Part shown: piece by piece, positions 2-26,096 of the stretch
How positions within the stretch are numbered: position 1 is the stretch's first letter
Layout: each line of letters begins with the position of its first letter
Source: a virus
DNA: 27,164 nucleotides
IMG/VR virus record: IMGVR_UViG_3300045988_012994
Coordinates: 1-27,164 of that record
Strand: one strand, 5' to 3'
Program-made: the position numbers and the translations under genes
Notes under the pieces: generated by a model
The model's input: the letters and a program-made list of their open reading frames with translations, nothing else
What the model was told of the DNA's origin: nothing
Databases searched by the model: none

Positions 2-454
2 TATGCTCAGACCCTCGAAAAAGGGTCATATAGCGTGATTATTGATTCTGTTAAGCATTTACGTACGAATAATCAGAATCGGCTTATGTGGTCATTAATC
101 AAGGAAATAAGTGAAAACGAAAACGCTAGTCATAACGATACATGGGATATGTATTGCGAATTCTTGAGAATGGCAAAAGCTTTATATACATATGTTTCAG
201 TTTTGAAAGATGGTGTTGATTCGTTGGCTCAAGCACATGGAGTTAGAGCGGTTCAAATATTGGGTACTGAGATAAGAGACAATGGAAATGAATTTGTAAA
301 TTGTAGATTGTTTCTAGGCTCATCACAAATGGACACAAAGCAAATGGGAGTCTTAATTGATTGCATACTAGATTATGCAGAACAATTAGGAATCAACACT
401 CAATACTATTTAGATAAAGGAATCAAGGTGGAAGAAAATAAAATTTGTAATTAA
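2..454 (+). CDS. NinB/Orf-family recombination mediator (5' end outside window)
   Basis: The frame is open from the first base of the window, so the GTG at 35 in the ORF track is probably internal. RTNNQNRLMWSLIKEIS and GSSQMDTKQMGVLIDCILDYAEQLGI resemble lambda NinB (RSLDQNRKLW...; STSRMRVGEFAELLELIQAFG). It lies next to RusA, as in lambdoid nin regions. Confidence 0.55.
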   Translation, partial: YAQTLEKGSYSVIIDSVKHLRTNNQNRLMWSLIKEISENENASHNDTWDMYCEFLRMAKALYTYVSVLKDGVDSLAQAHGVRAVQILGTEIRDNGNEFVNCRLFLGSSQMDTKQMGVLIDCILDYAEQLGINTQYYLDKGIKVEENKICN

Positions 455-816: not shown

Positions 817-1548
817 ATAGCAGAACTAAAGAAAAGCCTACAAAGTGGGTATACACACGTTAACAATGAAATATTTCACGATAGAGAACTATCCTATAAA
901 GCAAAAGGCTTGTTTTGCCAAATGTTAAGCCTTCCGGATAATTGGGACTTTAAGGAAAACAGTATTAAAGCATTAGCTACAGATGGAATATCAAGTGTTC
1001 GTTCCGGTTTAAAAGAATTAATGAATAAAGGATATTTAATTCGTGAACCTATTAGAGAAGGTAATTTAATTGTTGATTGGCAATATACATTAATAGACAA
1101 TCCTCGGAATTTAGAAAATCTAAAAATAGAAAATCTAAAAATAGAAAATCTAAAATTAGAAAATCTAAACCCTATTAAATTAAATAATAATTCAACTAAA
1201 AATGAATTAAATAAAAATAATATTAATGTATGTACGCACAAACATAAATACGGAGAATTTCAACACGTGTTACTTACAGATAAAGAACACACACACCTAT
1301 TAGATTTATATGGTGATTCATTAGATGAGCATATAAAGATATTAGATGAGTATATTGAAACATCCGGAAAGAAATACAAGAACCATTCATTAGTACTACA
1401 AAAGTGGGTACATGATGAATGGATGAAAAGAAATAAGAACAATCCTGTAAAACTTGATTCTAAATTCTATGTACAAGAAAGCAATCAATCGTATGCAGAT
1501 GTACAGAAAGAAATGGAACGAGTAAGGAAAGAAATATTAAGAGCGTAG
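817..1548 (+). CDS. Phage replisome organizer / DnaD-like HTH protein (ATA 817, or GTG 808)
   Basis: The N-terminal GYTHVNNEIFHDRELSYKAKGLFCQMLSLPDNWDF...GLKELMNKGYL is the HTH_36/replisome-organizer pattern. The C-terminal YGEFQHVLLTDKEH...LDEYIETSGKKYKNHSLVLQKWV is the conserved phage C-terminus. It contains 15-bp iterons. GTG 808 lies inside the SD GGGGGTGA (804-811), whereas ATA 817 is 5 nt downstream of it. Confidence 0.7.
   Translation: MAELKKSLQSGYTHVNNEIFHDRELSYKAKGLFCQMLSLPDNWDFKENSIKALATDGISSVRSGLKELMNKGYLIREPIREGNLIVDWQYTLIDNPRNLENLKIENLKIENLKLENLNPIKLNNNSTKNELNKNNINVCTHKHKYGEFQHVLLTDKEHTHLLDLYGDSLDEHIKILDEYIETSGKKYKNHSLVLQKWVHDEWMKRNKNNPVKLDSKFYVQESNQSYADVQKEMERVRKEILRA
1112..1170. 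repeat. Four tandem 15-bp direct repeats (TAGAAAATCTAAAAA-type iterons), putative origin of replication
   Basis: Units start at 1112, 1127, 1142 and 1157, with only 1-2 changes in the last two. They are translated as NLENLKIENLKIENLKLENL inside the organizer gene. Confidence 0.7.
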
Positions 1549-4122: not shown

Positions 4123-4297
4123 AGAAAGAATAGAAGCATATAAAAGAGACATAAGTAAATGCGAGACAGAAGTATTGTTACAGACATTCGGGCTATTAAT
4201 GCATAACAACATCCTAGTAGAAGGATTCGATGAATATTTATTAAAAATGGACATTATAGAAGCAGAAATTCTAAAAAGAACAGGAGAACGAAAATGA
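4115..4297 (+). CDS. Hypothetical small protein
   Basis: ATGA-type overlaps at both ends. Confidence 0.5.
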   Translation: MIEERIEAYKRDISKCETEVLLQTFGLLMHNNILVEGFDEYLLKMDIIEAEILKRTGERK

Positions 4298-6439: not shown

Positions 6440-6634
6440 ATAGAAATGAATTACGAAGAAAGGATTAAAGAGTTAATTTCTAAAAACAATAGACTAGGAA
6501 GGAAGAATATTGAATTGGAGCAGACTTTAAAAGAAAGAAATGTAACAATTCATACTCAAGCTAAAGAAATCAAGAAATTAAGAAGTGAAGTTGGCGAATT
6601 AAAGGATAGATTGTATAAGGTATACAGTTCATGA
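6440..6634 (+). CDS. Hypothetical coiled-coil protein (start ATA 6440 or ATG 6446)
   Basis: SD GGAGG at 6427-6431 is 8 nt from ATA 6440 and 14 nt from ATG 6446. GTG 6431 overlaps the SD itself. Confidence 0.55.
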   Translation: MEMNYEERIKELISKNNRLGRKNIELEQTLKERNVTIHTQAKEIKKLRSEVGELKDRLYKVYSS

Positions 6635-6957
6635 GTACATATGAAGATATTAAGAGACACTTCTTGTGTGAATGCCAATCGTACACATATTATGAGCAAA
6701 AGATAGCAGAGCTACAAAGGGATGAAGCAATTTATCCTTTAAAAGCCGAGCTATTCTTGGCTCATGCAGATTATGCAAGAAGAATGAACTATGTAAAAGA
6801 AAAATTAAGCCAACTTGATGATACAACTCGAACAATGATTGAGTATAGATATATAAAAGGATTCAGTGCAGAAAAGACATCTAATATTGTAGGTTATGCA
6901 AGAGAAGAAATCCCAAGAAAAATAAATAAGAACTTAAAGAAAGTGCTCACAATGTGA
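6631..6957 (+). CDS. Phage late-gene transcriptional regulator (ArpU/RinA-like, sigma region-4-like HTH)
   Basis: The C-terminal TRTMIEYRYIKGFSAEKTSNIVGYAREEIPRKINKNLKKV resembles a sigma-70 region 4 HTH. It is the last gene of the early block, directly upstream of the packaging/structural genes. Confidence 0.6.
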   Translation: MSTYEDIKRHFLCECQSYTYYEQKIAELQRDEAIYPLKAELFLAHADYARRMNYVKEKLSQLDDTTRTMIEYRYIKGFSAEKTSNIVGYAREEIPRKINKNLKKVLTM

Positions 6958-6966
6958 GCATTTTTT
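6944..6966 (+). terminator. Rho-independent terminator after the regulator gene
   Basis: Stem TGCTCAC/GTGAGCA (6944-6950 / 6954-6960), loop AAT, then TTTTTT (6961-6966). The stop codon 6955-6957 lies inside the stem. Confidence 0.7.
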
Positions 6967-6968
6967 CA

Positions 6969-6977
6969 TGTAATAAT
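6969..6977 (+). promoter_or_regulatory. Possible extended -10 promoter (TGTAATAAT) for the tRNA
   Basis: Matches TGnTATAAT at 8/9 positions. Its last base is 6 nt upstream of the predicted tRNA 5' end (6984). No convincing -35 element. Confidence 0.3.
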
Positions 6978-6983
6978 TGTTTT

Positions 6984-7059
6984 AGCAGGATAGAGCAGTA
7001 GTAGCTCACTAGTCTTATTAGCTAGAGGTCGAATGGTGCAAATCCTTCTCCTGCAACCA
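6984..7059 (+). tRNA. Initiator-like tRNA with anticodon UAU (reads AUA), CCA encoded
   Basis: Manual cloverleaf: AGCAGGA TA GAGC AGTAGTA GCTC A CTAGT C-T-TAT-T-A GCTAG AGGTC GAA(T)GG TGCAAAT CCTTC TCCTGCA A CCA. This gives 6 acceptor pairs plus unpaired A1 x A72, a 4-bp D stem, a 5-bp anticodon stem and a 5-bp T stem with one bulged T. The D arm, variable loop and 3' end closely resemble bacterial tRNA-fMet. Confidence 0.7.
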
Positions 7060-7139
7060 TGATTACAAAGCCTATCAGTAAGTCCTTCCAAAATTAGATA
7101 TTAAATACCAACAATGGCATACAATTAGGCTTTTATATT

Positions 7140-7164
7140 ACCGAGCGTTTGTCTCGGTTCTTTT
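7140..7164 (+). terminator. Rho-independent terminator closing the tRNA unit
   Basis: Stem ACCGAG/CTCGGT (7140-7145 / 7153-7158), 7-nt loop, then TCTTTT. Confidence 0.65.
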
Positions 7165-7182
7165 AATAATAAGGAGGAGAAT

Positions 7183-7764
7183 ATGAATATTGTTGAAAAA
7201 AGATTAAATGAGCTAAAGCCTTATGAGAATAACCCTAGAATCAATGATGGAGCAGTGAAATTTGTTAAAAATTCTATTGAAGAATTCGGTTTCAAAGTGC
7301 CTATTGTTATTGATAAAAATGGAGTGATTGTTGCAGGTCATACACGATATAAAGCTAGTCAAGAATTAGGCTTAGAAACTGTTCCTTGCGTGGTTGCAGA
7401 TGATTTAACAGATGAGCAAGTAAAAGCATTTAGAATTGCAGATAATAAAACGGCAGAAAAAGCGTCGTGGGATTTAGACGCATTAAAGACAGAAATGGAA
7501 GAGCTAGAAGAAATTGACGGAATCGATATGAGAGATTTCGGATTCGGTGATTTTGAAATTAGTGCATTAACTGAGGATATGGAAGCAGAAGGATATGACA
7601 ACGAGCTTATGGACGCATTTAGCGAACATTCAGAAGATATGTTAAAAAAGCAACGTGTAATCATTACATATGAAACAGAGGAAGAACAACTATTCTTAGA
7701 GAAACTCTTGCAGGTAACTGAATTGAAAGTATGTTACGACATCAAGGAATTAATGAATGAATAA
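7183..7764 (+). CDS. ParB-like N-terminal (ParB/Srx nuclease/NTPase) domain protein
   Basis: LKPYENNPRINDGAVKFVKNSIEEFGFKVPIVIDKNGVIVAGHTRYKASQELGLETVPCVV is the ParBc motif set (YENNPR ... GHTR). The tail is acidic. Strong SD AAGGAGGAG. Confidence 0.8.
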   Translation: MNIVEKRLNELKPYENNPRINDGAVKFVKNSIEEFGFKVPIVIDKNGVIVAGHTRYKASQELGLETVPCVVADDLTDEQVKAFRIADNKTAEKASWDLDALKTEMEELEEIDGIDMRDFGFGDFEISALTEDMEAEGYDNELMDAFSEHSEDMLKKQRVIITYETEEEQLFLEKLLQVTELKVCYDIKELMNE

Positions 7765-8524
7765 CATCTATTATGCAATAGCTAGTTACCATAGACCAAA
7801 ATGTAAAACGTATCACGCATTAAAAGAATGTGGAATTGAAGATGAAAGAATCGTTGTGTGTTTAAATGATTCAAATGATTATAAAGCTTACAGACAGAAT
7901 TTAGGAAGCCGAGCGAGAATCATTTTAAGAGAAGGGATGTATGTATCATTCAATAGGAATACATGCCTAAATCAATTTGAAGATGGTTCAAAAATACTAT
8001 TGTTAGATGATGATATAAGGAGCTTCCAAAAATGGTATGAATGTTCTGAAACTAAATGTGGACGTTTAATAAATTTGACAAATAACTTTGAGCGTGAAGT
8101 TAAAAAGATATTTGATTTTATGCAAAAAAACGGAATCAATTATGCCGGTGTAATATCAACCGACAATAAAATGAACATTTCAAAGCTAAATAGGCTAGGT
8201 GAACAATATTCATATAACACGCTTTTACAAGGCGGATTTAATTTCATTATAAAAAATAACAAGATTGTATATGATGAAAAAATGAAAATCTTAGATGATT
8301 ATGAGTTATGCCTTAGATTAATAAGACAAGGACAAATTTTAGCAAGAAATAACACTATTATTGCAAATAAAGCAAGAATGGGAAAAGAAAAAGGTGGATA
8401 TTATGAAATATATAAAACTACAAACCTACAAAAGCAATATCTAAATTTATTGAAAAGAAAATATGATGACATGGTAACAATTAGAGGAAATAACTTAATT
8501 ATTAAAAGAAAATGGAGGATATAA
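7757..8524 (+). CDS. Hypothetical protein, possible GT-A-fold (DxD) glycosyltransferase-like enzyme
   Basis: N-terminal beta-strand/Rossmann-like IYYAIASYHRP followed by SKILLLDDDI (a DxD-type motif). No family was recognised with certainty. Confidence 0.35.
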   Translation: MNNIYYAIASYHRPKCKTYHALKECGIEDERIVVCLNDSNDYKAYRQNLGSRARIILREGMYVSFNRNTCLNQFEDGSKILLLDDDIRSFQKWYECSETKCGRLINLTNNFEREVKKIFDFMQKNGINYAGVISTDNKMNISKLNRLGEQYSYNTLLQGGFNFIIKNNKIVYDEKMKILDDYELCLRLIRQGQILARNNTIIANKARMGKEKGGYYEIYKTTNLQKQYLNLLKRKYDDMVTIRGNNLIIKRKWRI

Positions 8525-8525
8525 G

Positions 8526-9833
8526 GTGAATAAAATCAGTGAGACATATCAATCACCAAGATGGACAGGAGAAATCGCAGATTGCTCATTACCGGTAACA
8601 TTTGACACATATTCCAACTGTTCATTTGGATGTGTTTATTGTTTTAGCCAATATCAAAGAGGTATTGGTGCAAGTAAAGAAGCATATCTTAATAAAGATG
8701 TGAAATGTATCAATGTTGAGAAATGCAAAAAGATTTTCAGTGGAGAAGATACAAAATCACAATTCTATAAATACATTAAAGACAGAAGACCTATTCAATA
8801 TGGTGGATTATCAGACCAATTCGACGGATACGAAAAGAAATATGGTAAAACCTATGAAATGCTCAAGTATATGAAATCTATTAACTATCCTATCTGTTTT
8901 AGTACGAAATCGGCATGGGTATTTAACGACCCTAAATATCAAGAATTATTCAAAGGTGCAGACAATTGGAATGTTAAGTTTAGTATCATCACACTAGATG
9001 AAGAGGACGCAAGAAAAATCGAAGTAGGTGTTCCAAGTCCAAGAAAAAGACTTGAAGCAATGAAAAAATATACTGAACTATCAAAAGGTGGTGCAACTTT
9101 AAGATTGCGTCCGTTTATTGTAGGAGTATCAGATAAAACCTATCTAGATTTAATTAGAGAAGCCAAAAAGGCAGGAGCAACGGCAGTTACTACGGAGTTC
9201 TTTTGCTTAGAAATGAGGTCTATTAAACAAGCTAAGGAGCATTATGATGTGATTAGTGAATGTGCAGGGTTTGATATTGTAGATTTCTATAGAAAACATT
9301 CAAATGGAAGTGGATATTTAAGACTTAACAGAAAAGTAAAGACTAAATACATTCAAAAGATGAAAGAGCTATGTGATGAATTAGGTATGCGATTCTATGT
9401 ATCAGACGCACACTTTAAAGAATGCTCGAATAACTGTTGTTGTTGCGCATTAGACAAGAACTGGGATTACTCAAGAGGAAACTTTAGTGGAGCTTTACAA
9501 ATTGCAAAGAAACATGGAAGAGTACATTGGAAAGATATTGAAAAGGATATGTACTTCTTAGACTTTGAGCGTAACAAAGCGGTTGTTTTTAATACAAATA
9601 CATCAGAAACTAGAGCAAAATATGCAGGAATGACAATGAAAGATTATCTGCATTATTTATGGAATTCACCAAAAGCAGGACAATCACCTTATAAGATTTT
9701 TGAAAAGGTTCTAAAGCCTGTGGGATTTGATGAAAATAATGACATCATTTACGAATATGATAATTCAGTAACATTCTTAAAAAGAACAGAGGAGATTACA
9801 GAACTTGAAACAGAAGAAGCAAGACATGTCTAG
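8526..9833 (+). CDS. Radical SAM enzyme, SPL / COG1533 'DNA repair photolyase'-like
   Basis: CSFGCVYCF is a CxxxCxxC 4Fe-4S/SAM motif about 30 residues from the N-terminus, preceded by W.GE...C.LP..FDTY. TIM-barrel-like spacing follows (GGLSDQFD, ICFSTKS, RLRPFIVGVSD). GTG start lies 6 nt after TGGAGGA. Confidence 0.75.
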   Translation: MNKISETYQSPRWTGEIADCSLPVTFDTYSNCSFGCVYCFSQYQRGIGASKEAYLNKDVKCINVEKCKKIFSGEDTKSQFYKYIKDRRPIQYGGLSDQFDGYEKKYGKTYEMLKYMKSINYPICFSTKSAWVFNDPKYQELFKGADNWNVKFSIITLDEEDARKIEVGVPSPRKRLEAMKKYTELSKGGATLRLRPFIVGVSDKTYLDLIREAKKAGATAVTTEFFCLEMRSIKQAKEHYDVISECAGFDIVDFYRKHSNGSGYLRLNRKVKTKYIQKMKELCDELGMRFYVSDAHFKECSNNCCCCALDKNWDYSRGNFSGALQIAKKHGRVHWKDIEKDMYFLDFERNKAVVFNTNTSETRAKYAGMTMKDYLHYLWNSPKAGQSPYKIFEKVLKPVGFDENNDIIYEYDNSVTFLKRTEEITELETEEARHV

Positions 9834-10318: not shown

Positions 10319-11652
10319 TGACTAGAACGATTCCTTGGGGGAAATTTTCAGATAAACACAAGAACTATATTAAGACCGCCCTAAATTACAAACGAAGTGT
10401 AGCAGAAGGAGCGGTACGAAGTGGTAAAACGATTGACCACTGCATAATCTTTTCAATGTATTTAGAAACATGTGAAGATAAAATACATTTAGCGAGTGGG
10501 TCAAGCTTACCGAATGCAAAATTAAATATAGGTGACTGCAATGGTTTCGGCTTAGAGCATATCTTTCGTGGGCGTTGTCGTTGGGGCAAATACAAATCAA
10601 ACGAAGCATTATTTGTCCAAACAAAGACAGGCGAAAAGATAGTGATATTTACAGGTGGTGGAAAGTCCGATTCATATAAGAGCATATTAGGTAACTCATA
10701 TGGTGGATGGATAGCGACCGAAATAAATGAGCATTACGATTGTGATGATTCTAGAACAAGCTTTATCAAGGTAGCAATGGCAAGACAGATTGCAAGCGTA
10801 CATCCATTTACATTATGGGATTTAAACCCATCAAACCCCAACGCAGACATTTATAAGAATTACATAGATAAATTCATGGGGTTAGATTGGTACAGATATG
10901 AGCATTTCAATATCTTTGACAACGCTACAATGAGCCAAGAAAGAATAGAAGAAATCAAAAACAAATATGATATGAATTCAGTATGGTACAAGCGAGATAT
11001 TCTAGGGGAAAGAATGGTTGCCGAAGGACTTGTATTCCCTTATTTTGCTAATGACTGCAAACCTTATTTATTTAAATATCAGAGTCTAAAAGAAAAGATG
11101 AAGGAAGAAGGGAAAAGGTTCAGTCATTTAATCATAGGCGTTGACTTTGGAGACAACGGCTCAAAGTATTCATGGCACTTAACAGGGTTTACAAATGAGT
11201 GGGATTATATGTGGGCACTTGACGAAGGAGACATGGCAAAATCTAATTCCATAGACGCAACAAAGTTTTGCAAAGCATTTGTAAGGTTCTATAAGCGTTG
11301 TGTTGAATGTTACGGATATGTAGAATGGATATTTCCGGACAGTGCTTCTAATACGTTGATAAACACACTTAGAGCTTATTTTTACGCCGAAGGATTAGAC
11401 GGAAGTATAATTGCACCGGTCAAAAAAAATGAGCTTGCAGACCGTCCTATAACGGTTGATAGCTTACTTGTTACAGGTAGGTTAAAGATAGAAGAACATT
11501 GTAAGAACTTAATAAACGCATTGAGCGAATTGGTATGGGATGAAAAAAAAGACATTCCAAAAGATGAGAACGTAAACAATATCAATGATGATTGGGATTC
11601 GTTCTGCTACACATTTATCACACATAGTGGATATATAGATTTAAGGAGGTAA
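10315..11652 (+). CDS. terL: Terminase large subunit
   Basis: Walker A-like AEGAVRSGKT, ATPase then nuclease layout (IIGVDFGDNGS...), 445 aa, ATGA-coupled to TerS. Confidence 0.88.
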   Translation: MMTRTIPWGKFSDKHKNYIKTALNYKRSVAEGAVRSGKTIDHCIIFSMYLETCEDKIHLASGSSLPNAKLNIGDCNGFGLEHIFRGRCRWGKYKSNEALFVQTKTGEKIVIFTGGGKSDSYKSILGNSYGGWIATEINEHYDCDDSRTSFIKVAMARQIASVHPFTLWDLNPSNPNADIYKNYIDKFMGLDWYRYEHFNIFDNATMSQERIEEIKNKYDMNSVWYKRDILGERMVAEGLVFPYFANDCKPYLFKYQSLKEKMKEEGKRFSHLIIGVDFGDNGSKYSWHLTGFTNEWDYMWALDEGDMAKSNSIDATKFCKAFVRFYKRCVECYGYVEWIFPDSASNTLINTLRAYFYAEGLDGSIIAPVKKNELADRPITVDSLLVTGRLKIEEHCKNLINALSELVWDEKKDIPKDENVNNINDDWDSFCYTFITHSGYIDLRR

Positions 11653-11655
11653 GAA

Positions 11656-13059
11656 ATAGAAACATCTAACACACGTAATCCGTGGTTTCAGAATTACCTA
11701 AACGACAGGGGGTATTATGTAGATACAAATGCAATTCAAATTATTGAATTGTGCAACAAGTGGTATACAAATACCGAAACAGAATTTCATACGGCATACA
11801 CCTTGAACAATGAGGAATACACGCTAGACAAGACAGACTTTGCAAAGCGTTTATGCGAGGACGATGCAAACCTTATTGAAATCCTAGATATAAACGCAAC
11901 AGAGGACAGTGCTACAAATGACATTATTTCAGATATTCTAACAAAGAATAGATTTGATGTAATGTATAGGAAACAGGTTGAGCAAATGTCTGCAAATGGT
12001 ACAGTAGGGGCTTATGTTACGGTATCAAATGCCGAGATTTATGAAGATGGTACATTCAGTGGAGGGGAAATTAGAATCAACTATTGTGATTCAATGAATA
12101 TCCTTCCATTAACTGTTATTAATGATGAAATTGTGGAAGTTGCTTTCGTTGGCGTAAATTATGAGAAACTAAAAAAAGTATATGTGATGGTCATGTTCTT
12201 AAAAGGACAAGACGAAAGATATATTGCAGAAACACATTACTTCAAAGATACAGGTGAAGAAATAAAAGACCGTGCTCAGATTGTTCAATTAGATGTGGTT
12301 AAGCCTTTTGCAATTATGAGAAACGCAAAGGTAAACAACCTACAAATGCAAGGTTACGGCTTGCCGAAGATTTGGAGTGCAATTGCTCCACTAAAAACAA
12401 TTGATTTGACAATGACAATGTGGAATCGTGATTTGTTGAAGTCAGATAAAATCGTTCTTGTAAATGAAGCATTAATGCAGAAAGACGAGAATGGAAAGAT
12501 TAAGATGAATCCACAAATGAAAAAGATATTCGTTCAGTTAGGTAGAGATAAACTACCGGAAGAAAAAGCTTTATGGCAAGAATACAATCCAACAGTTAGA
12601 ACACAAGAAGTTGTGCAATCTTTAGAAACTGCTTTAAGTATCTTATCAATGATGTTTGGATTCGGTACAAAGAAATACACATTTGAGAGTGGAAGAATCG
12701 TAACGGCTACAGAATATATCGGCGAAAATCAAGACGCAATGAAGGAAGTAAATTCACAACGTAAAGAATCTACTGCATATATTCAAGATATCATTCAAGC
12801 AATAGCATACTTTTATGAATTAACGCAAGGCAGAAAGCTTAATATCAATTCATTAGACATTGCTATTGATTATGATGATACGTACATTGAGGATAAGCAA
12901 AGCACGGCACAAGCGTTAAGAAATGACGCATTAACATTTGATATTCCAAGATTAAAAATCATGTACTTCATGAAGCAATACGGCTTTACAGAAGAAGAAG
13001 CAACGGAATTATTAAATGAAGAAATTCAAGATGATGGAGAGGGGGATGACGAAGAATAG
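11656..13059 (+). CDS. Portal protein (proposed ATA start)
   Basis: 467 aa ORF immediately after TerL, with an acidic C-terminus. The frame is open from the TerL stop. ATA 11656 lies 6 nt after GGAGG (11645-11649). The first canonical start (TTG 11749) would leave 96 nt of open frame unused. Confidence 0.75.
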   Translation: METSNTRNPWFQNYLNDRGYYVDTNAIQIIELCNKWYTNTETEFHTAYTLNNEEYTLDKTDFAKRLCEDDANLIEILDINATEDSATNDIISDILTKNRFDVMYRKQVEQMSANGTVGAYVTVSNAEIYEDGTFSGGEIRINYCDSMNILPLTVINDEIVEVAFVGVNYEKLKKVYVMVMFLKGQDERYIAETHYFKDTGEEIKDRAQIVQLDVVKPFAIMRNAKVNNLQMQGYGLPKIWSAIAPLKTIDLTMTMWNRDLLKSDKIVLVNEALMQKDENGKIKMNPQMKKIFVQLGRDKLPEEKALWQEYNPTVRTQEVVQSLETALSILSMMFGFGTKKYTFESGRIVTATEYIGENQDAMKEVNSQRKESTAYIQDIIQAIAYFYELTQGRKLNINSLDIAIDYDDTYIEDKQSTAQALRNDALTFDIPRLKIMYFMKQYGFTEEEATELLNEEIQDDGEGDDEE

Positions 13060-13865
13060 CAACTACATATTTTCCATTCGTCTCAAGAAATGGCGATAGA
13101 TTAGTACTATATGACGCTTTCAGAAGATTATTCTCAAGCTACTTTACAAATGGCGTATTCATAGATGATTCTAGTTCAGACCATTTAAGAGTTGAGAAAG
13201 CTCAAGGCTTAACCTTAACAGTTAAAGCAGGACGAGCAAATATTAACGGAGCATTCTATTGGCAAAGGGATGACGAAACCATCACATTAGAAAAGAATAG
13301 CGCTACTAAAAGCTACAATATTATTCTTAGATTGAATGATAATGACGCATACAGAAACATTACCTTAGTAGCAAGTGATATCAATGATGGAATCACAAGA
13401 AGTGATTCTATTTACGATTTAGTATTAGCTACGGTAACAGTAACAGGCAATTCGAACGAAGTTAAAGGCTCAGATATTACTGATACAAGATTAGATTCAA
13501 CACGTTGTGGAGCAGTTACAAGCGCTATTAAGAGTGTACAATCGTTGGATTTATTCACTCAAGTAACGGAGCTATTCAAAGAAATTAAGGCTCAGAATGA
13601 ATCTGAAATGAATGCAAATAGAACAGAGTTCAATGATTGGTTTGAAACTGTAAAAGATACGTTAGACGCAAATACGGCAGGAAAGCTATCGAACAGAATT
13701 TCCAATATTGAAAAGATGATTATGGAGAATCATTTCACTACGATTCTATTAACAGAAGATGGAACATTAGTAGATGAGAATGGTCATGAGATTCTAGCAG
13801 ATTGGGCGTATGAAGTTGATGAAGGTGAAGTAGGTAAAGATTGGACTTACAAGGTGAAATCATGA
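13056..13865 (+). CDS. Tail-fibre / receptor-binding-protein-like structural protein (proposed ATA start)
   Basis: The frame is open for 276 nt upstream of the track start (TTG 13332), with no ATG/GTG/TTG. ATA 13056 overlaps the portal TAG (ATAG) and lies 9 nt after GGAGAGGGGGA. N-terminal TTYFPFVSRNGDRLVLYDAFRRLFSSYFTNGV...AGRANINGAFY...ITDTRLDSTRCG resembles fibre/RBP shoulder domains of Gram-positive phages. Confidence 0.6.
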   Translation: MATTYFPFVSRNGDRLVLYDAFRRLFSSYFTNGVFIDDSSSDHLRVEKAQGLTLTVKAGRANINGAFYWQRDDETITLEKNSATKSYNIILRLNDNDAYRNITLVASDINDGITRSDSIYDLVLATVTVTGNSNEVKGSDITDTRLDSTRCGAVTSAIKSVQSLDLFTQVTELFKEIKAQNESEMNANRTEFNDWFETVKDTLDANTAGKLSNRISNIEKMIMENHFTTILLTEDGTLVDENGHEILADWAYEVDEGEVGKDWTYKVKS

Positions 13866-14499: not shown

Positions 14500-15108
14500 A
14501 TGGCTATTGAATATTTAGATAAGAGTGGACTAACGCTTTTAATTAGTAAAATTAAAGCTGCATTAGGTGGGAAAGTTGATGTTGTAAGTGGAAAAGGTTT
14601 ATCGACAAACGACTATACAAATGCAGAAAAACAAAAATTAAGTGGTATCGCAAGTGGTGCTCAAGTTAACGTGATTGAGTCTGTAAAGGTTAACGGTACA
14701 AAAGTTGAACCAAGCTCAAAAGCCGTAGATATTTCAGTGCCTACAAAAGTATCACAATTAACAAATGACAGTGGATTTCAAACATCTACGCAAGTAAATT
14801 CAATCGTTACAGGTAAAGGATATCAAACGCAATCACAAGTACAATCGTTGATTAATTCGGCAGTCGGTAATATTACATCTATTAGATATGAAAAGGTAAC
14901 GAGCTTACCTGCTACAGGTTCAAATGGTGTGATTTATTTGGTTGCACATTCACACGGAACGCAAGATATTTATGATGAGTATATTTGGCTTTCAGAGACA
15001 AAGACATATGAAAAGATTGGCAATACAGATATTGATTTATCGGCATATGTTAAGAAGTCAGAATTAACTGCGATTACTACAAATGATTTAAACACAATGT
15101 GGGGTTAG
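14500..15108 (+). CDS. Fibre-like protein (GLSTNDYT..EK.KL motif)
   Basis: Strong SD AGGAGGA. The N-terminal MAIEYLDKSGLTLLISKIKAAL and KGLSTNDYTNAEKQKLSGI are typical of phage tail/head fibre proteins. Confidence 0.6.
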   Translation: MAIEYLDKSGLTLLISKIKAALGGKVDVVSGKGLSTNDYTNAEKQKLSGIASGAQVNVIESVKVNGTKVEPSSKAVDISVPTKVSQLTNDSGFQTSTQVNSIVTGKGYQTQSQVQSLINSAVGNITSIRYEKVTSLPATGSNGVIYLVAHSHGTQDIYDEYIWLSETKTYEKIGNTDIDLSAYVKKSELTAITTNDLNTMWG

Positions 15109-18650: not shown

Positions 18651-19520
18651 ATACCAAATGAAATTGCATTAGCTAAAACGTATGTCTCAAATTTGGATGA
18701 GGTATATAAGTTAGCTTCAGTCACAGGTGATTTAAACGCAAGCGCTACAATGGTACGAGCAGGAGCAAACGCAAAAGAAATCATCTACCCACAAATTTCT
18801 GTTAAAGGTTTAGGAAACTACGATAGAAACAGTGGTTATACAGGTAACTCAGTTAAGTTAGAATGGAAAACTGCTACATTCGACTATGATAGAGGAACTA
18901 AAATCTCAGTTGATACACAAGATAACGCAGAATCAATGAATATTGCATTCGGCATGGCAGGAGCGGAATTAATGCGTACAAAGGTTGCACCGGAAGCAGA
19001 CGCTTACACATTCGCTAAGATTGCCGGCACAACAGGAATCACAAAGGTTTCAGAAGATTATACAGGTGCAGAAGAGTTCTTGAGTGCATTATTAACGGCT
19101 ATCACTAAAATGGATGAGGATGAAGTTCCTAGCGAACAACGTATCTTATATTCAACACCAACATTATTAAATAGCGTTAAAGCATTAGATACATACAAAT
19201 CACGTGAAGCTTTACAAGGATTTGCAAAAATTGTTCCTGTACCTTCAACACGATTCTATACAAAAATTAAATTGTTGAGTGGAAAAGATACAGAGTTAGA
19301 GGGCGGATACGAAAAGGCAGAGGATGGACACGCAATCAACTTCTTAATTGTTCACAAACCTGCCGTAATGAAATGGGATAAACACACTGTTTCAAATGTG
19401 ATTCCTGCAAGCAATAACATCGAATCAGATTCAGATGTATTGAAATATCGTAAATATGGAATCGTTGATGTATACCAAAATAAGGTAGCAGGTATTTACT
19501 TATCTGCTAGTGCTAAGTAA
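18651..19520 (+). CDS. Major capsid protein (proposed ATA start)
   Basis: Position after the scaffold, ~290 aa. ATA 18651 lies 9 nt after GGAGG (18637-18641) and is the second codon after the in-frame stop at 18645-18647. The extension PNEIALAKTYVSN completes the conserved ...Y...LDEVYK.AS.T.DL N-terminus. The track start is TTG 18693. Confidence 0.8.
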   Translation: MPNEIALAKTYVSNLDEVYKLASVTGDLNASATMVRAGANAKEIIYPQISVKGLGNYDRNSGYTGNSVKLEWKTATFDYDRGTKISVDTQDNAESMNIAFGMAGAELMRTKVAPEADAYTFAKIAGTTGITKVSEDYTGAEEFLSALLTAITKMDEDEVPSEQRILYSTPTLLNSVKALDTYKSREALQGFAKIVPVPSTRFYTKIKLLSGKDTELEGGYEKAEDGHAINFLIVHKPAVMKWDKHTVSNVIPASNNIESDSDVLKYRKYGIVDVYQNKVAGIYLSASAK

Positions 19521-19992: not shown

Positions 19993-20408
19993 CAGGTTTC
20001 TTTGAAGATTCAATCACGCTTGTAAATCACTACTATGATACATTGACAAGAGAAGATAGGTTTCAAGCTTATATACTTGATAAATGTATGTGGAGACAAT
20101 CAACAGTTAGGACTGCAAATGGTAATATTCTGAGCATAGCCACATCCACAAATATTACCATTCTATATCGTGAGGGATATGTTGAACCTTACGCATATGC
20201 AAAACTTTCAAATGATGAGAAACAAAAGCACTTCACATTAAATACAGATAAGACAGATTTTGTATTCTTTGGAGAGGTAAAAGAAGATTTATCTAGTATT
20301 AAATCAATCAACGAAGCAAAAAAGAAATACAAATGGACAACCGTTCAAAGCGTAACAGATTGTACGAATGTCGATATGTTGAAGCATTGGGAGGTTGTCG
20401 GTCAATAG
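19989..20408 (+). CDS. Head-tail joining protein (putative)
   Basis: ATGA overlap at 19989-19992. Call based on synteny. Confidence 0.5.
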   Translation: MTGFFEDSITLVNHYYDTLTREDRFQAYILDKCMWRQSTVRTANGNILSIATSTNITILYREGYVEPYAYAKLSNDEKQKHFTLNTDKTDFVFFGEVKEDLSSIKSINEAKKKYKWTTVQSVTDCTNVDMLKHWEVVGQ

Positions 20409-20767
20409 GAATGAAAGTCAAACTTGATGTTGAATCAATTCCCCAAATTAAACAATCAAGAGGACTTGAAGAACGTGGACGAGTGCAACAAATGATTGAT
20501 TCTGAAGTTATTAGGCTTATGACCCCTTATACGCCTAGAGACACAGGAGCATTAATTAACTCGGCTACACGATTAACACAAATTGGTAGTGGATTAGTAA
20601 AACAAGGTGGACCAAGTGCACCTTATGCTAGACGGTGGTATTACAACAAAGAGAATGCTCATTTCGTTGGCGGTAAATCAGACCATTGGTTTAAAAAATC
20701 TATGCGAAATGGTGGAGCAGAGACAATCTTAAAGAAAGCGCAAAAAATGATAGGAGGTAGTGAATGA
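20405..20767 (+). CDS. HK97 gp10-like head-tail joining protein (start ATA 20405 or ATG 20411)
   Basis: MTPYTPRDTGALINSAT matches the gp10-family P.DTG.L..S motif. GGAGG at 20390-20394 is 10 nt from ATA 20405 (ATAG overlap with the upstream TAG) and 16 nt from ATG 20411. Confidence 0.6.
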   Translation: MGMKVKLDVESIPQIKQSRGLEERGRVQQMIDSEVIRLMTPYTPRDTGALINSATRLTQIGSGLVKQGGPSAPYARRWYYNKENAHFVGGKSDHWFKKSMRNGGAETILKKAQKMIGGSE

Positions 20768-21183
20768 CAGTATCAAAAGCGTTGATTCAATGGCTTTATG
20801 GCTACGGAAATATACAGATAGATGAACGTATTGAAACGGATGTTTTAGCGCAACAAGCTATCTCTTATGCGTTGTATAAAGAACCTAACGCAATTGTAAA
20901 TACATACATTGATGGTTCTCAAATGCGTACTGAATACTACACGTTTCTAGCACGTAGGAATACACAAATTGAATCAGAAAGACAAGATAACAATGTTTTT
21001 CTAGAAGAATTAGAAAAATGGATTGACGAAAAGAATTTAAGCGGAGAATCACCACAACTAGACGGAAACAGACATTGTGATGATGTTTCCGTTTCAAGTG
21101 GTTTATATCTATACACAAATGAGGATAATCAAGCAGTATATGCGTTGACTATTCAAATTAAATACAGAAAGGAGCTTAATTAA
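20764..21183 (+). CDS. Tail completion / head-tail joining protein (putative)
   Basis: ATGA overlap. SD GGAGGT. Call based on synteny. Confidence 0.5.
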   Translation: MTVSKALIQWLYGYGNIQIDERIETDVLAQQAISYALYKEPNAIVNTYIDGSQMRTEYYTFLARRNTQIESERQDNNVFLEELEKWIDEKNLSGESPQLDGNRHCDDVSVSSGLYLYTNEDNQAVYALTIQIKYRKELN

Positions 21184-21689
21184 TAGCAACTCAAGGAACT
21201 GAAGTAACTACAGGACAGACAGTCAAGAAGTATATGATTGGATTGTTCTTACAAATGGGAGAAGGTTACAAGCGAATTAAAAAGTCTACAACTTTAGATA
21301 TTTCATTCAATAGTGAAACTGAAACGTATGACTTTATCGCAGATAAGAATCCAACAGAATCATTAAAGAGTTATTCACCTCAGATTTCGCAAGATTTAAC
21401 AATGATTAAAGGCGAAGATGACTTTGAATACATTTACGAACAAATGATGAAATCCGTGCCAAACAATGAAGAAGTAAATACAAAAGCTTTACTTGTATTT
21501 ATGTTTGACGGAGACAAAACTAAAGGCTATAAAGCGTGGGAAGTTGACGCTAAATTAATTTTCGACACATTAAGTGGTGTTGATTCAAAAATCAACTTCA
21601 ACATTAACTTTGCAAGCGACATTCGTGTCGGTACTGCAAGGGTAGCAGATGGAGCAGTAACATTTACAGAAGGCACATCAGAAGTATAA
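21183..21689 (+). CDS. Major tail protein (proposed ATA start)
   Basis: Position immediately before the chaperone and TMP. ATA 21183 lies 8 nt after AAAGGAG (21168-21174) and overlaps the upstream TAA (TAATA). The first canonical start, ATG 21234, has no SD and would drop ATQGTEVTTGQTVKKY. Confidence 0.7.
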   Translation: MATQGTEVTTGQTVKKYMIGLFLQMGEGYKRIKKSTTLDISFNSETETYDFIADKNPTESLKSYSPQISQDLTMIKGEDDFEYIYEQMMKSVPNNEEVNTKALLVFMFDGDKTKGYKAWEVDAKLIFDTLSGVDSKINFNINFASDIRVGTARVADGAVTFTEGTSEV

Positions 21690-22650: not shown

Positions 22651-25230
22651 ATATCAGACGGAACATTAAAGTTTGATACAAAGATTGATACAAGTGGTCT
22701 AGAGAATGGAATGAAATCCGTTCATGAAGTCACAAGTGGAGCTACAAATGCTATCAAAGAAACTTCAAAAGCAATCGACAAGTTAGGTTCTGATGGTTCA
22801 AAAGCACCACCAAAGATTAAAGATAAACTTAAAGATTTAAACGAAGAGCAAAAGAATACACAAACAGAAACGCAAGAAACAGGTTCTAAATTTGATGTAT
22901 TTAAAAAAGTAGGAAACAGTGCCTTAGAATCAATTCAAGGTGGATTTGATGGACTATTAGGAAAGATTCAGAATATCAGTCCGGAAGCTACTGCAATCAC
23001 TGAAACCCTAACAGGATTAGGCGTAGGAGGTGTTGTTGGTGTTACTGCCATAGCAGGAGCTATCGGTGGAATGGCATTAGCAATTAAGACAGGTGTTAAC
23101 CAAGCTACAGAATTAGATGACGCTATGGCTAAATTTCAAGCTCAAACAGGTGCTTCAAGCAATGAAATGAGCAAATTTAAAAACATTGCTCGTGATGTTT
23201 GGTCAAACAATTTCGGTGAAGATGTTTCAGATGTTGCCGATATGATGGGCAGAGTCAAGCAACAAATGCAAGGCATAAGTGATGTTGACCTAAAGAACGT
23301 GACCGAGGATTTATTAACTTTAAGAGATACATTCGATATGGATGAGAATGAAACTCTTAGAGGTGCTCAACAATTAATGAAGCAATTCGGAATCACTTCT
23401 CAAGAAGCTTTCGACCTTATGGCTACAGGTGCTCAGAATGGTTTAAACAAATCAGATGAGTTAGGCGACAACATTTCAGAATACTCCGGTAAATTCGCAC
23501 AAGCAGGATATTCGGCAGATGAATATTTCCAATTAATGCAGAATGGATTAGATGGTGGAGCTTATAACCTTGATAAAGTTAATGACGCAATCAACGAAGT
23601 TACCACACGGTTAGTTGATGGAACTATTGAAGGAGCTTTAGATAGTTTTGATACCAAAACACAAGATGTATTTAAGGCATGGCAAGAAGGAAGAGCAACT
23701 CAAAAAGATGTTGTGAATGCGATTGTAGAAGATATTTCAAAGACTACAAATGAACAAGAAAAGTTGAATAAATCTGCAACGGCTTTCGGCACAATGGGAG
23801 AAGATTTCAACGCCGGATTCATTCAGTCCTTAACGACAGTAGGGAATAAATATAAAGACGTAGAAGGGGCAATGGATAAAGTTAAAGATATCGCAAATGG
23901 TGGCTTAAAGAACGCTTTAAGTGGCTTAGGGCGTACATTTCTTGATTCATTTACTCCAATAGGCGAACTTATTACTCCTATTCTTGCAGGTATCATTGGA
24001 TTGATTACAGTAGCTATACAAAGTATTCAACAAGGATTTGCTAAAGTTGGTGATGTAATTTCAAATGTATTAAGCAAGATTGATACAAGTGGAATTACAG
24101 AATTGACAAGTCAAGTTTCAGAGGTGTTAGCTCCTGCTTTTGATGAAGTTAGAAAAGCGATTGACGAAATGAAAGTTGCTCTTGAACCTATTGCAAAAGA
24201 AATCTTAAGTAAAATAGGTAACGCAATTCAAAATGTTGTTAACCAAGCTCAAAAGATTCTTAGCGTTGTAGGACCACCGATTCTAGCAATCATTAAGAAG
24301 ATTATTCAAACAGTTATCGGTATGACTCCTGTAATAACATCTATCCTTCAAGTAGTTGGAAGTGTGGTAAGTGGAATCATTTCATTTATAACTATGGTTG
24401 TAACATATGTAGGAACGTCTATTGCAACAATACTAGGATTTATCATGCCTATTGTTCAAATTGTAGCTACAATTGTAGCGAATATTTGGTCTGTAATATT
24501 AACGGTTGCTCAGAATATTTGGAGTAAGGTTAGTGAAGTAGTTACTGCGATTATTGGATTCGTAAGCAATTTATTTAAGACGGTTTCGGATATCATAAAC
24601 AATATTTGGAGCAAGATTCAAGATACAATGAACAGAGTCGGAGATAAAGTTAAAGGCGTTATTGACAATATCAATAAATATTTCAATAATATCAAATCTA
24701 CGGTTTCTGATGTATTCAATGGTATTTGGTCTAAAGTTCAAGGTGTAATGGATAATGTAGGGAATAAAATTTCAAATGTTCTACAAGGAATACAGAATTC
24801 ATGGAGCGGTTTAAAAGGATTTGTAAGTGGTGTATTTGGTGGAATTGAAGGAGCAGTACAATCGTTAGTCGGAAGTGTAAAAGGCTTCGTAAATGGCGTT
24901 ATAGGTGGCATTAATGGCGCTATCGGTATCATCAATAAGATTCCCGGTGTACACATTGGAAGAATCCCTAGGCTAGAGCGTGGTGGTGTATTAAAACGTG
25001 GTCAAATTGGCTTGCTAGAAGGTAATGGTGCAGAAGCAGTCGTACCATTAGAAAAAAATAAAGCGTGGATTCGTGCCGTCGCTAAAGATATGGCTCAAAT
25101 CATGCCTAGCGTAACAACAAATAACAACGGACAGACTATCAACTTCTACAATAAAGTTCAAAGTCCGGATGAAATTGCTAGAATGTTACGTATGCAAGCA
25201 AGATATGGATATGGAGGTGTAGTTCAATAG
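22651..25230 (+). CDS. Tape measure protein (proposed ATA start)
   Basis: 859 aa with a Gly/Ala-rich TM-like core, NIWSK-type repeats and a C-terminal GGVL.RGQIGLLEGNGAEAVVPL. ATA 22651 is the first codon after the in-frame TGA (22648-22650) and lies 11 nt after GGAGG (22635-22639). The extension SDGTLKFDTKIDTSGLENG is a typical TMP N-terminus. Confidence 0.88.
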   Translation: MSDGTLKFDTKIDTSGLENGMKSVHEVTSGATNAIKETSKAIDKLGSDGSKAPPKIKDKLKDLNEEQKNTQTETQETGSKFDVFKKVGNSALESIQGGFDGLLGKIQNISPEATAITETLTGLGVGGVVGVTAIAGAIGGMALAIKTGVNQATELDDAMAKFQAQTGASSNEMSKFKNIARDVWSNNFGEDVSDVADMMGRVKQQMQGISDVDLKNVTEDLLTLRDTFDMDENETLRGAQQLMKQFGITSQEAFDLMATGAQNGLNKSDELGDNISEYSGKFAQAGYSADEYFQLMQNGLDGGAYNLDKVNDAINEVTTRLVDGTIEGALDSFDTKTQDVFKAWQEGRATQKDVVNAIVEDISKTTNEQEKLNKSATAFGTMGEDFNAGFIQSLTTVGNKYKDVEGAMDKVKDIANGGLKNALSGLGRTFLDSFTPIGELITPILAGIIGLITVAIQSIQQGFAKVGDVISNVLSKIDTSGITELTSQVSEVLAPAFDEVRKAIDEMKVALEPIAKEILSKIGNAIQNVVNQAQKILSVVGPPILAIIKKIIQTVIGMTPVITSILQVVGSVVSGIISFITMVVTYVGTSIATILGFIMPIVQIVATIVANIWSVILTVAQNIWSKVSEVVTAIIGFVSNLFKTVSDIINNIWSKIQDTMNRVGDKVKGVIDNINKYFNNIKSTVSDVFNGIWSKVQGVMDNVGNKISNVLQGIQNSWSGLKGFVSGVFGGIEGAVQSLVGSVKGFVNGVIGGINGAIGIINKIPGVHIGRIPRLERGGVLKRGQIGLLEGNGAEAVVPLEKNKAWIRAVAKDMAQIMPSVTTNNNGQTINFYNKVQSPDEIARMLRMQARYGYGGVVQ

Positions 25231-26096
25231 ATATCAATAAAGTAAGAGTTATTGTCCGTAGGGATGATGGCAAAGAATTTGAAATTGATAATAAAAGATG
25301 GAGAATACCATCTAGTGATGGTTTAGATGGATTCGATTATGTAGCACCTTCATACACAACTCAAGACAATGCATTTGGGAATGGTGCTAGATTAATCGGT
25401 TCACGTATTCCCACAAAAGAAAGAAGCGTGAAAGCTACCTTTAAAGGCTCACTAGAAGAAAAAAGAGAAGAAAGGGAGAAGCTACGGCGCTTCTTCCAAT
25501 ATTCTCATGTATTTGATGTGATAGTTGAGTACATGGGAGAAAAGAAATATTGTAGAGGTCGTTTATATGCGTATAGCTTGCCTACAGTTAACATCTACAA
25601 AGATTTAGAGCTTAACTTTACGATTTTATGCACACAACCTTTATTGCTTTCATTTGATGATTTCGCAAGGAATATTGCAGAAATTGGTGAAGGTTTGGCA
25701 TTCAATTTTGAGATACCGGAAACAGGTGTGAACTTTGGAACATTTACATTCGCTAGAGAAATCTATATTGATAATCAAGGCGATACAGAAACATATTGTA
25801 GAGCCGTTATTGAAGCATTTGGAGAGGTAACAAATCCGAAACTATTCAATAAAGATAAATATATTCGTGTATTAGATACGCTACACAATGGTGATGTGTT
25901 AGAAATTGATTTAGTTTCTGAGCCTATATCAATCAAAAAGAATGGTGTGAATTGTATCGGAAAAGTTGATAGAACATCATCATTCAATGATATGACGATT
26001 CAGTTGGGTGAGAATATCATAGGATATACGGCAGACAATGGAGATACGAACCTAGCTTGTACGGTTTACTACAATGAAAGGTATTTAGGTTTATAG
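25227..26096 (+). CDS. Distal tail protein (Dit, siphovirus tail component; proposed ATA start)
   Basis: The frame is open for 201 nt upstream of track start GTG 25428, with no canonical start. ATA 25227 lies 9 nt after GGAGG (25213-25217) and overlaps the TMP TAG (ATAG). The N-terminal DINKVRVIVRRDDGKEFEIDNKRWRIPSSDGLDGF fits Dit N-termini. Confidence 0.75.
   Translation: MDINKVRVIVRRDDGKEFEIDNKRWRIPSSDGLDGFDYVAPSYTTQDNAFGNGARLIGSRIPTKERSVKATFKGSLEEKREEREKLRRFFQYSHVFDVIVEYMGEKKYCRGRLYAYSLPTVNIYKDLELNFTILCTQPLLLSFDDFARNIAEIGEGLAFNFEIPETGVNFGTFTFAREIYIDNQGDTETYCRAVIEAFGEVTNPKLFNKDKYIRVLDTLHNGDVLEIDLVSEPISIKKNGVNCIGKVDRTSSFNDMTIQLGENIIGYTADNGDTNLACTVYYNERYLGL

Follow-up and report, generated by a model that had tools for sequence, protein, structure and literature searches.

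A phage tRNA with an initiator-type body and a UAU anticodon, found together with ATA start codons

To our knowledge, all natural initiator tRNAs of bacteria and phages carry a CAU anticodon and read AUG-type codons, and changes of that anticodon have so far been a laboratory matter only. We describe here a phage tRNA gene that lies in a 27,164-nt stretch of viral DNA (IMG/VR record IMGVR_UViG_3300045988_012994; the whole stretch is called the window below) and specifies an initiator-type body with a UAU anticodon, in a genome where ten genes start with ATA. A literature search for natural phage non-AUG initiators or ATA-start systems found no precedent, and engineered initiators are the closest analogue. 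In these, the anticodon has been switched to CUA (amber), GAU, GUG or AAC, with initiation at the complementary non-AUG codon (10.1101/2024.07.29.605542; 10.1101/2021.05.25.445580; PMC3643588), and genes with the switched start depend on the special tRNA, as in an amber-initiator design for phage biocontainment. The same logic would apply to the phage tRNA. The engineered molecules are man-made in E. coli, whereas the phage tRNA is natural, is conserved across lineages, and matches a codon, AUA, that also serves as an internal sense codon.

Three other systems invite comparison. Elongator tRNAs with a UAU anticodon that reads AUA are known, one of them being the tRNA-Ile(UAU) of Mycoplasma mobile. 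Another is the suppressor tRNA-Ile(UAU) of a Bacillus subtilis tilS-deletion strain (PMC3919564). Such elongators have an isoleucine body, a paired 1:72 and a purine at position 37, and they work in the A-site, whereas the phage tRNA combines an initiator body with a 1:72 mismatch and U37. Mitochondrial tRNA-Met (f5CAU; cited within PMC3643588) also uses AUA as a start through a special anticodon; there, one tRNA with a modified C34 serves both initiation and elongation, and AUA means methionine throughout. In the phage, by contrast, the tRNA is a separate one with an encoded U34, and internal AUA is presumably isoleucine. Finally, suppressor tRNAs recode stop codons in gut phages (10.1101/2021.08.26.457843; PMC9523058). 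As in the window, a phage there has its own tRNA for a codon meaning that the host does not serve efficiently, and the recoded codon is found mainly in structural and late genes; however, elongation in those phages inserts an amino acid at a stop codon, while here a sense codon would be read as a start during initiation. The window's tRNA(UAU) accompanies ten ATA starts, seven of which head packaging or structural genes, and the combination recurs across lineages. The phage system works like suppressor-tRNA recoding without being a member of it, the codon being a start rather than a stop.

The tRNA gene and its relatives

A first-pass annotation made from the sequence alone had proposed a 76-nt cloverleaf for this gene (Table 1), and all of the features it listed are present on direct reading and in the Rfam alignment. 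From 5' to 3' the gene reads AGCAGGA, TA, the D arm GAGC AGTAGTA GCTC, A, the anticodon arm CTAGT CTTATTA GCTAG, the variable loop AGGTC, the T arm GAA-T-GG TGCAAAT CCTTC, then TCCTGCA and ACCA, with the CCA genomically encoded. In the acceptor stem A1 faces A72 and is followed by G2:C71 and C3:G70, with A73 next to the CCA; these determinants, the A11:U24 pair formed by the GAGC/GCTC stem, the AGGTC loop and the GCAACCA end had all been claimed, and all are there. The D loop lacks GG, G30:C40 is the sole G:C pair of the anticodon stem, the loop CTTATTA carries the anticodon UAU and U37, and the T arm has a bulged T and G55. The Rfam model RF00005 matches 6984-7056 on the plus strand with 48.8 bits (E = 9e-8), against a curated gathering score of 29 bits above which a cloverleaf counts as a tRNA, and flags 1:72 as the only non-canonical pair. 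ARAGORN calls no tRNA at these positions in the window. This is because the window's variant has a bulged T stem and G55, and not because the gene is absent: relatives with a canonical T arm score 48-63 bits with RF00005 and are called by ARAGORN, which labels them tRNA-Ile(tat).

In IMG/VR, pattern scans turned up this tRNA in 27-36 viral contigs, and in all the gene is kept in more than 80 related loci. The 108-aa putative regulator encoded directly upstream served as a second handle. It was found in 298 blocks of a public assembly index, the tRNA adjoins it in each of the 36 IMG/VR loci in which it is encoded, and its homologues are close relatives only, with no distant ones found. More distant copies of the tRNA came from contigs whose regulator is 81-87% identical (L074/L075 and L076), from a metagenome scan (L096), from IMG/VR (L082), and, at 55-58% portal identity, from a scan based on the portal (lineage D, L139-141 and L145; lineage E, L142-144 and L147). 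The main clade and four further lineages with such copies make up the five lineages considered below. From these, 12 distinct variants were compared (12-16 variants across two analyses). On the cloverleaf, 95.6% of their cells pair, as against at most 56% in slid-partner controls, and 8 of the 21 stem pairs show compensatory changes on both sides. Covariation backs all four stems. Because the gene is kept in more than 80 related loci and its cloverleaf covaries, this comparison of sequences confirms a real tRNA gene under selection, far beyond chance.

The first-pass annotation had itself raised the possibility of a decaying copy of tRNA-fMet, and a non-functional remnant of a tRNA-Ile gene can be considered along with it. 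The bulged T stem, G55, the missing D-loop GG and the rejection by ARAGORN speak for decay, as does an unexceptional minimum free energy fold of the window tRNA (z = -0.96), a measure that is uninformative for tRNAs. Against it, the compensatory changes preserve the four stems down to 55% portal identity, the anticodon loop is invariant, and 28 close relatives show not a single variable site at 6988-7025 although the flanks vary. The bulge base itself is free (T, C, A or G) while the stem around it is maintained. The covariation excludes decay, and we give this explanation hardly any credence. The annotation's related worry about the D loop and T arm was correct for the window, yet the bulged T arm with G55 and the GG-less D loop belong to a single variant, the window's own and the most frequent; sister variants have the D loop AGTGGTG and the T arm GGAGG TTCAAAT CCTTC. 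The G55 T loop (7037-7043) and the bulged T stem occur only alongside the D loop AGTAGTA (6998-7004), which has A at position 18, and this D loop is also seen with a canonical T arm (L068). The association may reflect a linked change of the tRNA elbow, or simply recombination between variants.

When 185,579 species-representative genomes were scanned for the D-arm or anticodon-arm pattern, no prophage with the tRNA turned up and no cellular homologue of its anticodon arm, and blastn of the tRNA against E. coli genomes gave no match. In IMG/VR, no copy of the same body with another anticodon was found, nor any canonical fMet anticodon arm altered at C34U alone.

Initiator and elongator hallmarks

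Across the 12 variants, G2:C71, C3:G70, A4:U69, A11:U24, G30:C40, A72, A73 and CCA are invariant, and the anticodon loop CUUAUUA is the same in every copy, so that the UAU anticodon claimed from the window holds for the whole family. G2:C71, C3:G70 and A73 are the acceptor-stem determinants of the formyltransferase (PMC5389676; PMC1635315). In a survey of 234 bacterial genomes, A11 and U24 occur in essentially 100% of tRNA-fMet genes, and C1, G2, C3 and G70, C71, A72 of the acceptor stem are near-invariant (PMC1635315). Position 1 of the phage tRNA is A in the main clade, C in L096 and L082 (the canonical bacterial C1×A72), G in lineages D and E, and U in L074-76. The 1:72 mismatch that the annotation noted in the window is thus shared by 10 of the 12 variants (A×A, C×A or G×A), but it is not universal, since the other two form a weak U:A pair. 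Such exceptions are known among true initiators, 1.5% of which have U1-A72 or A1-U72 instead of a mismatch (PMC1635315), and a strong Watson-Crick 1:72 pair is found in no variant.

The anticodon stem fits less well. Initiators have three G:C pairs at 29:41, 30:40 and 31:39, in place of which the window has A:U, G:C and U.G; in the family, half of the variants have G:C at 29:41, and U.G stands at 31:39 apart from a single C:G. The annotation had noted that only G30:C40 survives, which is so. The weight of this departure is reduced by the finding that, in E. coli, initiator function needs no more of the three than the middle pair G30:C40, and au/GC/gu initiator variants occur naturally (PMC5389676); incomplete G:C triplets were found in 15% of the initiators surveyed (PMC1635315). 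The anticodon is the second departure, UAU replacing CAU in every copy. Compared with tRNA-fMet, including the tRNA-Met of Phaeobacter phage MD18, the phage tRNA is alike in its absent or weak 1:72, in G2:C71, C3:G70, A73, A11:U24 and G30:C40, and in the variable loop AGGTC and the 3' end GCAACCA, and the MD18 acceptor stem TGCAGGA...TCCTGCAACCA is identical. It differs in that tRNA-fMet has CAU, A37 and a G:C pair at 31:39 and reads AUG, GUG and UUG, whereas the phage tRNA has UAU, U37 and U.G, matches AUA, and has lost the methionyl-tRNA synthetase (MetRS) identity. Because the CAU anticodon and the G:C triplet are missing while most structural hallmarks are present, the sequence features lead us to file it as an initiator-derived body with a new codon specificity, rather than as a tRNA-fMet.

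The main competitor is an ordinary elongator, tRNA-Ile(UAU), that serves internal AUA codons in addition to, or instead of, the lysidine-dependent decoding of the host, with the ATA starts read inefficiently by the host tRNA-fMet with the help of a strong Shine-Dalgarno (SD) sequence. The UAU anticodon, the tRNA-Ile(tat) label given by ARAGORN and the paired U1:A72 of two lineages would suit this explanation. Elongators that read ANN codons have a paired 1:72, Y11:R24 and a purine at 37. The window's tRNA has A1×A72, A11:U24, which is an initiator hallmark, and U37, which rules out t6A37; across the variants, three different bases mismatch an invariant A72. When the tRNA was compared by BLAST with 50,697 phage genomes, every named full-length match was a tRNA-Met or tRNA-fMet and none a tRNA-Ile. 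The best match is the MD18 tRNA-Met (L089; 77% identity), which has in common the acceptor stem TGCAGGA/TCCTGCA and the GAGC/GCTC stem. Deviant loops also occur in other CAU phage tRNAs of the Met/fMet type, TTCATTA with U37 in Erwinia phage Omen (L090) and TTCATAT in MD18, and odd loops may be commoner among the initiator-like tRNAs of phages.

ATA start codons and their co-occurrence with the tRNA

The 46 curated genes of the window comprise 33 that start with ATG, 10 with ATA, 2 with GTG and 1 with TTG (Table 1). Each ATA stands 5-11 nt 3' of a strong SD, at the extreme 5' end of its open frame, and most either abut the previous stop codon or overlap it as ATAA or ATAG. The overlaps at 13056-13059, 20405-20408 and 25227-25230 are the ATA counterpart of the ATGA start/stop overlap, and suggest translational coupling. 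With a mean duplex energy of -13.6 kcal/mol, the SD sites of ATA starts are stronger than those of NTG starts (-8.5; p = 2e-4). Up to 85 relatives keep the ATA codons unchanged, although the spacer that separates them from the SD differs.

Table 1. Features of the window: tRNA gene, ATA starts and flanking elements (SD spacing in nt; relatives are those that cover the codon)
Positions	Strand	Feature	Basis	Relatives
6984-7059	+	tRNA, UAU anticodon, initiator-type body, encoded CCA	RF00005, covariation, direct reading	
438-440	+	ATA start, RusA-like resolvase (gene 438-815)	SD AGGTG, spacing 7; phrog_1682 match from residue 2; first NTG = residue 12	ATA in 12/12; lineage D orthologue also ATA
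817-819	+	ATA start, replication-initiation/DnaD-like (gene 817-1548)	SD GGGGGTGA, spacing 5	ATA in 7/7; L074 equivalent = ATA at 4424
6440-6442	+	Probable ATA start of 64-aa gene, ambiguous	SD AGGAGGTG, spacing 6 to ATA vs 12 to ATG two codons downstream (6446)	ATA and ATG both invariant in 85 loci, spacer variable
11656-11658	+	ATA start, portal (gene 11656-13059)	SD AAGGAGGT, spacing 5; 3 nt past TerL stop; phrog_533 match from residue 22; first NTG = residue 32	ATA in 38/38 close relatives and in lineages D, E, L074, L096
13056-13058	+	ATA start, 269-aa gene (13056-13865)	SD GAGGGGGA, duplex -17.3 kcal/mol (window's strongest); portal-stop overlap ATAG	ATA in 63/63
14500-14502	+	ATG start in window, ATA in most close relatives	Orthologous start, same SD	Polymorphic: ATA in 24, ATG in window and 6 relatives
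18651-18653	+	ATA start, major head protein (gene 18651-19520)	phrog_422 and homologue alignment; residues 3-288 match phrog_422 positions 3-294 of 297	ATA in 38/38
20405-20407	+	ATA start, minor head/connector-type (gene 20405-20767)	SD GGGAGGT, spacing 9; stop overlap ATAA	ATA in 33/33; lineage D orthologue ATA, no ATG nearby
21183-21185	+	ATA start, putative major tail (gene 21183-21689)	SD AAAGGAG, spacing 8; phrog_3099 match from residue 10; first ATG = residue 18	Polymorphic: ATA in 29, ATG in 1
22651-22653	+	ATA start, tape measure (gene 22651-25230)	SD AAAGGAGGTGG; phrog matches from residue 7; first ATG = residue 21	ATA in 26/26; N-terminus IADGTL... in lineage D, ISDGTL... in window
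25227-25229	+	ATA start, distal tail protein (gene 25227-26096)	SD GGAGGTG, spacing 7; tape-measure-stop overlap ATAA; phrog_33 match from residue 20; first NTG = residue 68	
6631-6957	+	108-aa putative transcriptional regulator	Weak phrog_36 match	Directly 5' of tRNA throughout main clade
6944-6966	.	Terminator-like hairpin TGCTCAC-AAT-GTGAGCA (6944-6960) and T6	End of upstream gene	
6969-6977	+	Extended -10-like element TGTAATAAT	Sequence reading; ends 6 nt 5' of tRNA	
7140-7164	+	Terminator-like hairpin (7140-7158) and T-rich tail	3' of tRNA	

The capsid ATA aligns exactly with Met1, encoded by ATG, of two annotated major head proteins, from Eggerthella phage PMBT5 and from Ruminococcus phage RG-TP1, and likewise with the ATG of homologues in three unannotated faecal phage contigs (IPNEIALAK... 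in the window, MANSITKFK... and MANNIALRK... in homologues). These five homologues belong to phages in which no tRNA was found. A 43%-identical portal, from a contig in which the tRNA was not found either, has ATG at the equivalent start. Because ATG-starting orthologues align at the ATA codons, the ATA starts are real, as judged from these alignments. Three candidates were rejected along the way: GTG 808, which lies inside the gene's own SD; ATA 4234, where a good ATG stands at 4294; and TTG 13332, the first in-frame NTG of the 269-aa gene, which is unconserved. Public gene calls begin the ATA genes at the first downstream NTG (this is also seen in L066-L073 and L150-L153), and the apparent intergenic gaps at 11652-11749, 13059-13332 and 25230-25428 are really coding sequence. 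Gene callers thus mis-annotate such phages, the portal being called 31 residues short (436 instead of 467 aa) and the distal tail protein 67 short.

The first-pass annotation had called for a search for relatives in which the tRNA and ATA starts occur together, and the two co-occur in all five lineages. In 31 of the 38 close relatives with an ATA portal start the tRNA lies 2.1-5.2 kb upstream; the remaining seven have less than 3.9 kb of DNA 5' of the portal, and four of these contigs carry the tRNA elsewhere. At 55-58% portal identity, each of the eight loci has a single tRNA(tat), together with an ATA portal start. Among ATA-portal phages with enough upstream DNA, all 39 loci carry the tRNA, down to 55% portal identity, and no relative with ATA starts and without the tRNA was found in this set. 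The genes concerned are orthologous from one lineage to another (RusA-like, portal, capsid, tail and tape measure). A strict scan was made for codons that open an open reading frame of at least 60 codons behind an SD of at least 6 nt, with no NTG at spacing 3-11 and an in-frame stop at most 75 nt upstream. It yielded six ATA sites in the window, three in L074, five in L096 (against three NTG) and six in L140 (against five NTG). The controls, about 118 kb in all, were Streptococcus phage Javan523, three faecal contigs with homologous capsids, and the contig with the 43%-identical ATG-start portal. They showed no tRNA and at most one ATA site, which lies beside an annotated ATG (Fisher p = 1e-5). 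This hit, in the Javan523 integrase gene, was discounted for the annotated ATG two codons upstream. In that gene (L085, 1218-1224, minus strand) AGGAGGTG is followed by the annotated ATG, and the ATA two codons later stands at ideal SD spacing, so that its true start is ambiguous.

These results also bear on the elongator tRNA-Ile(UAU). The annotation had mentioned an Ile(UAU) codon supplement as the mundane possibility, and AUA does account for 22% of the window's internal isoleucine codons (140 internal AUA). However, the share in tRNA carriers (22-36%) is no higher than in tRNA-less controls (24-40%), so that no AUA excess exists for a supplement to serve. The elongator also leaves unexplained why 20% of genes, including those of the most abundant virion proteins, would be placed on a codon of 3-30% efficiency, and why the ATA habit is limited to genomes that carry the tRNA. 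All in all, we regard an ordinary elongator as unlikely.

A non-translational or defensive role was considered too: the tRNA could be a decoy or resistant substitute where a host nuclease cuts the anticodon loop of tRNA-fMet or tRNA-Ile, or a site of recombination or priming, with the link to ATA a coincidence. It has been proposed that phage tRNAs escape anticodon nucleases through changes in their anticodon loops (PMC10264068), and the Erwinia phage tRNA annotated as fMet shares U37. A decoy or substitute for tRNA-fMet would nevertheless be expected to retain CAU, whereas the invariant UAU matches the unusual start codon of these genomes. In addition, no integrase gene adjoins the tRNA, and coincidence sits badly with co-occurrence across five lineages. 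We consider such a role highly improbable.

Decoding, charging and genome setting

The dedicated UAU initiator for ATA starts suggested by the first-pass annotation gains support from the conserved hallmarks, from the ATG orthologues, and from a co-occurrence without counter-example. On these sequence grounds, the phage-encoded tRNA quite probably acts as an initiator that reads AUA start codons in the P-site. A tRNA-fMet-type ancestor would have become a phage-specific initiator through a change of anticodon from CAU to UAU. The tRNA would be transcribed from its own extended -10 promoter, between the regulatory and replication genes and the packaging and structural genes. A host synthetase would charge it, with isoleucine by isoleucyl-tRNA synthetase (IleRS) more likely and methionine possible, and the host formyltransferase would probably formylate it through the retained acceptor-stem determinants. 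IF2 would then bring it to the 30S P-site, where UAU would pair perfectly with the AUA codons heading about 20% of the genes, namely those for the RusA-like resolvase, replication initiator, portal, major head, connector, major tail, tape-measure and distal tail proteins. A 1:72 mismatch excludes EF-Tu. The absent or weak 1:72 pair should thus bar the phage tRNA from elongation, and internal AUA codons would stay isoleucine through the host tRNA-Ile2.

Recognition by MetRS depends on C34. When the anticodon of an E. coli initiator is switched, charging follows the new anticodon (PMC3643588), and a B. subtilis strain in which AUA is decoded by a UAU suppressor derived from tRNA-Ile1 is viable (PMC3919564). 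Since MetRS needs C34, switched initiators follow the new anticodon and the UAU suppressor decodes AUA, isoleucine is by analogy our best guess for the amino acid carried. In B. subtilis, binding of a UAU anticodon that lacks modification is strong to AUA and weak to AUG (PMC3919564). In E. coli, an initiator mutant with CUA starts at UAG with about 72% of the efficiency of AUG initiation, and the native initiator reaches about 3% of AUG at AUA (PMC3643588).

Several observations weigh against an AUA-reading initiator. U37 is unusual for any tRNA, the G:C triplet of the anticodon stem is incomplete, 1:72 is paired, if weakly, in L074-76, and the window's variant, with its bulged T stem, G55 and missing G18G19, is rejected by ARAGORN. 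The UAU anticodon is not what MetRS identity calls for, and the IleRS identity elements established in E. coli are missing from the body. On the side of the genes, the strongest SD sites of the window belong to ATA genes, and a host initiator in Staphylococcus aureus acting on AUA with an extended SD attains 10-30% of AUG (bioRxiv 10.1101/2025.06.19.660503), both of which would suit an elongator tRNA and inefficient initiation by the host. Finally, the tRNA is preceded by three of the ATA starts (those of the RusA-like gene, the replication initiator and the ambiguous 64-aa gene). Since three ATA genes stand among replication and recombination genes, a simple late-gene switch does not fit. As for the purpose of an AUA-reading initiator, candidates are the dependence of key proteins on a phage-made tRNA, which may silence leaky prophage transcripts or keep the genes from spreading to other phages by recombination, and initiation that does not rely on the host initiator; timing of expression is possible as well. 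The protection from attack on host tRNA-fMet that the annotation had suggested is speculative.

The setting of the gene is compatible with a transcription unit of its own, as the annotation had maintained: the extended -10 candidate and terminator-like hairpins on both sides were recovered by reading the sequence or by scan. At equal distance from the tRNA, two further lineages have TGAAATAAT (L074) and TGGGATAAT (L076), that is TGnAATAAT or TGnGATAAT, and TGTAATAAT may be the promoter of the tRNA gene. The promoter scan of the window did not report 6969-6977 because it has no -35. The upstream hairpin is listed on the minus strand by the scan, and TTTTTT follows the palindrome on the plus strand. 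The spacer of about 120 nt at 7060-7177, terminator included, is conserved along with the tRNA, and past 7178 the sequence becomes mosaic and the genes differ. The spacer has no match in Rfam; it could belong to the tRNA transcript as a 3' trailer, or it could be a small RNA in its own right.

The window comes from a phage of siphovirus type with 33% GC. The tRNA is preceded by an SSB gene and the 108-aa regulator, and is followed by ParB_N, TET-associated glycosyltransferase and radical-SAM genes, then by the small and large terminase and the portal. The module at 7183-9833 (ParB_N, the glycosyltransferase of family PF20691 and a radical-SAM-like protein of 435 aa) has the look of one for DNA hypermodification, and in close relatives it is replaced by other genes (DUF6275, QueT and others). 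In L074, positions 1386-1453 match a type II hammerhead ribozyme (RF02276, 38.1 bits, threshold 37) upstream of recombination genes. Megablast of 25 kb of the window against known phages gave no close DNA match. A member of the ParB cluster, WP_337618870.1, is named 'Holdemanella sp.' and sits on a 37.6-kb phage-like contig of GCA_037267135.1, which carries the tRNA too. This hints weakly that the gut phage family may infect Holdemanella or other Erysipelotrichaceae; a literature search on Holdemanella prophage tRNAs returned nothing relevant.

Taken as a whole, it is likely that these gut phages, possibly of Holdemanella or other Erysipelotrichaceae, have a natural orthogonal initiation system, in which part of the starts have been reassigned to AUA and are served by an initiator tRNA(UAU). 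A natural start-codon reassignment of this kind looks previously undescribed, and if true it would be the first in the bacterial world. The major virion proteins would then begin with a residue that is not delivered by a CAU tRNA, possibly formyl-isoleucine in place of formyl-methionine, and their synthesis would depend on a phage-made tRNA. This would add a new layer to the control that phages exert over host translation, parallel to stop-codon recoding, and synthetic biology and phage containment would gain an orthogonal initiation pair that already exists in nature.

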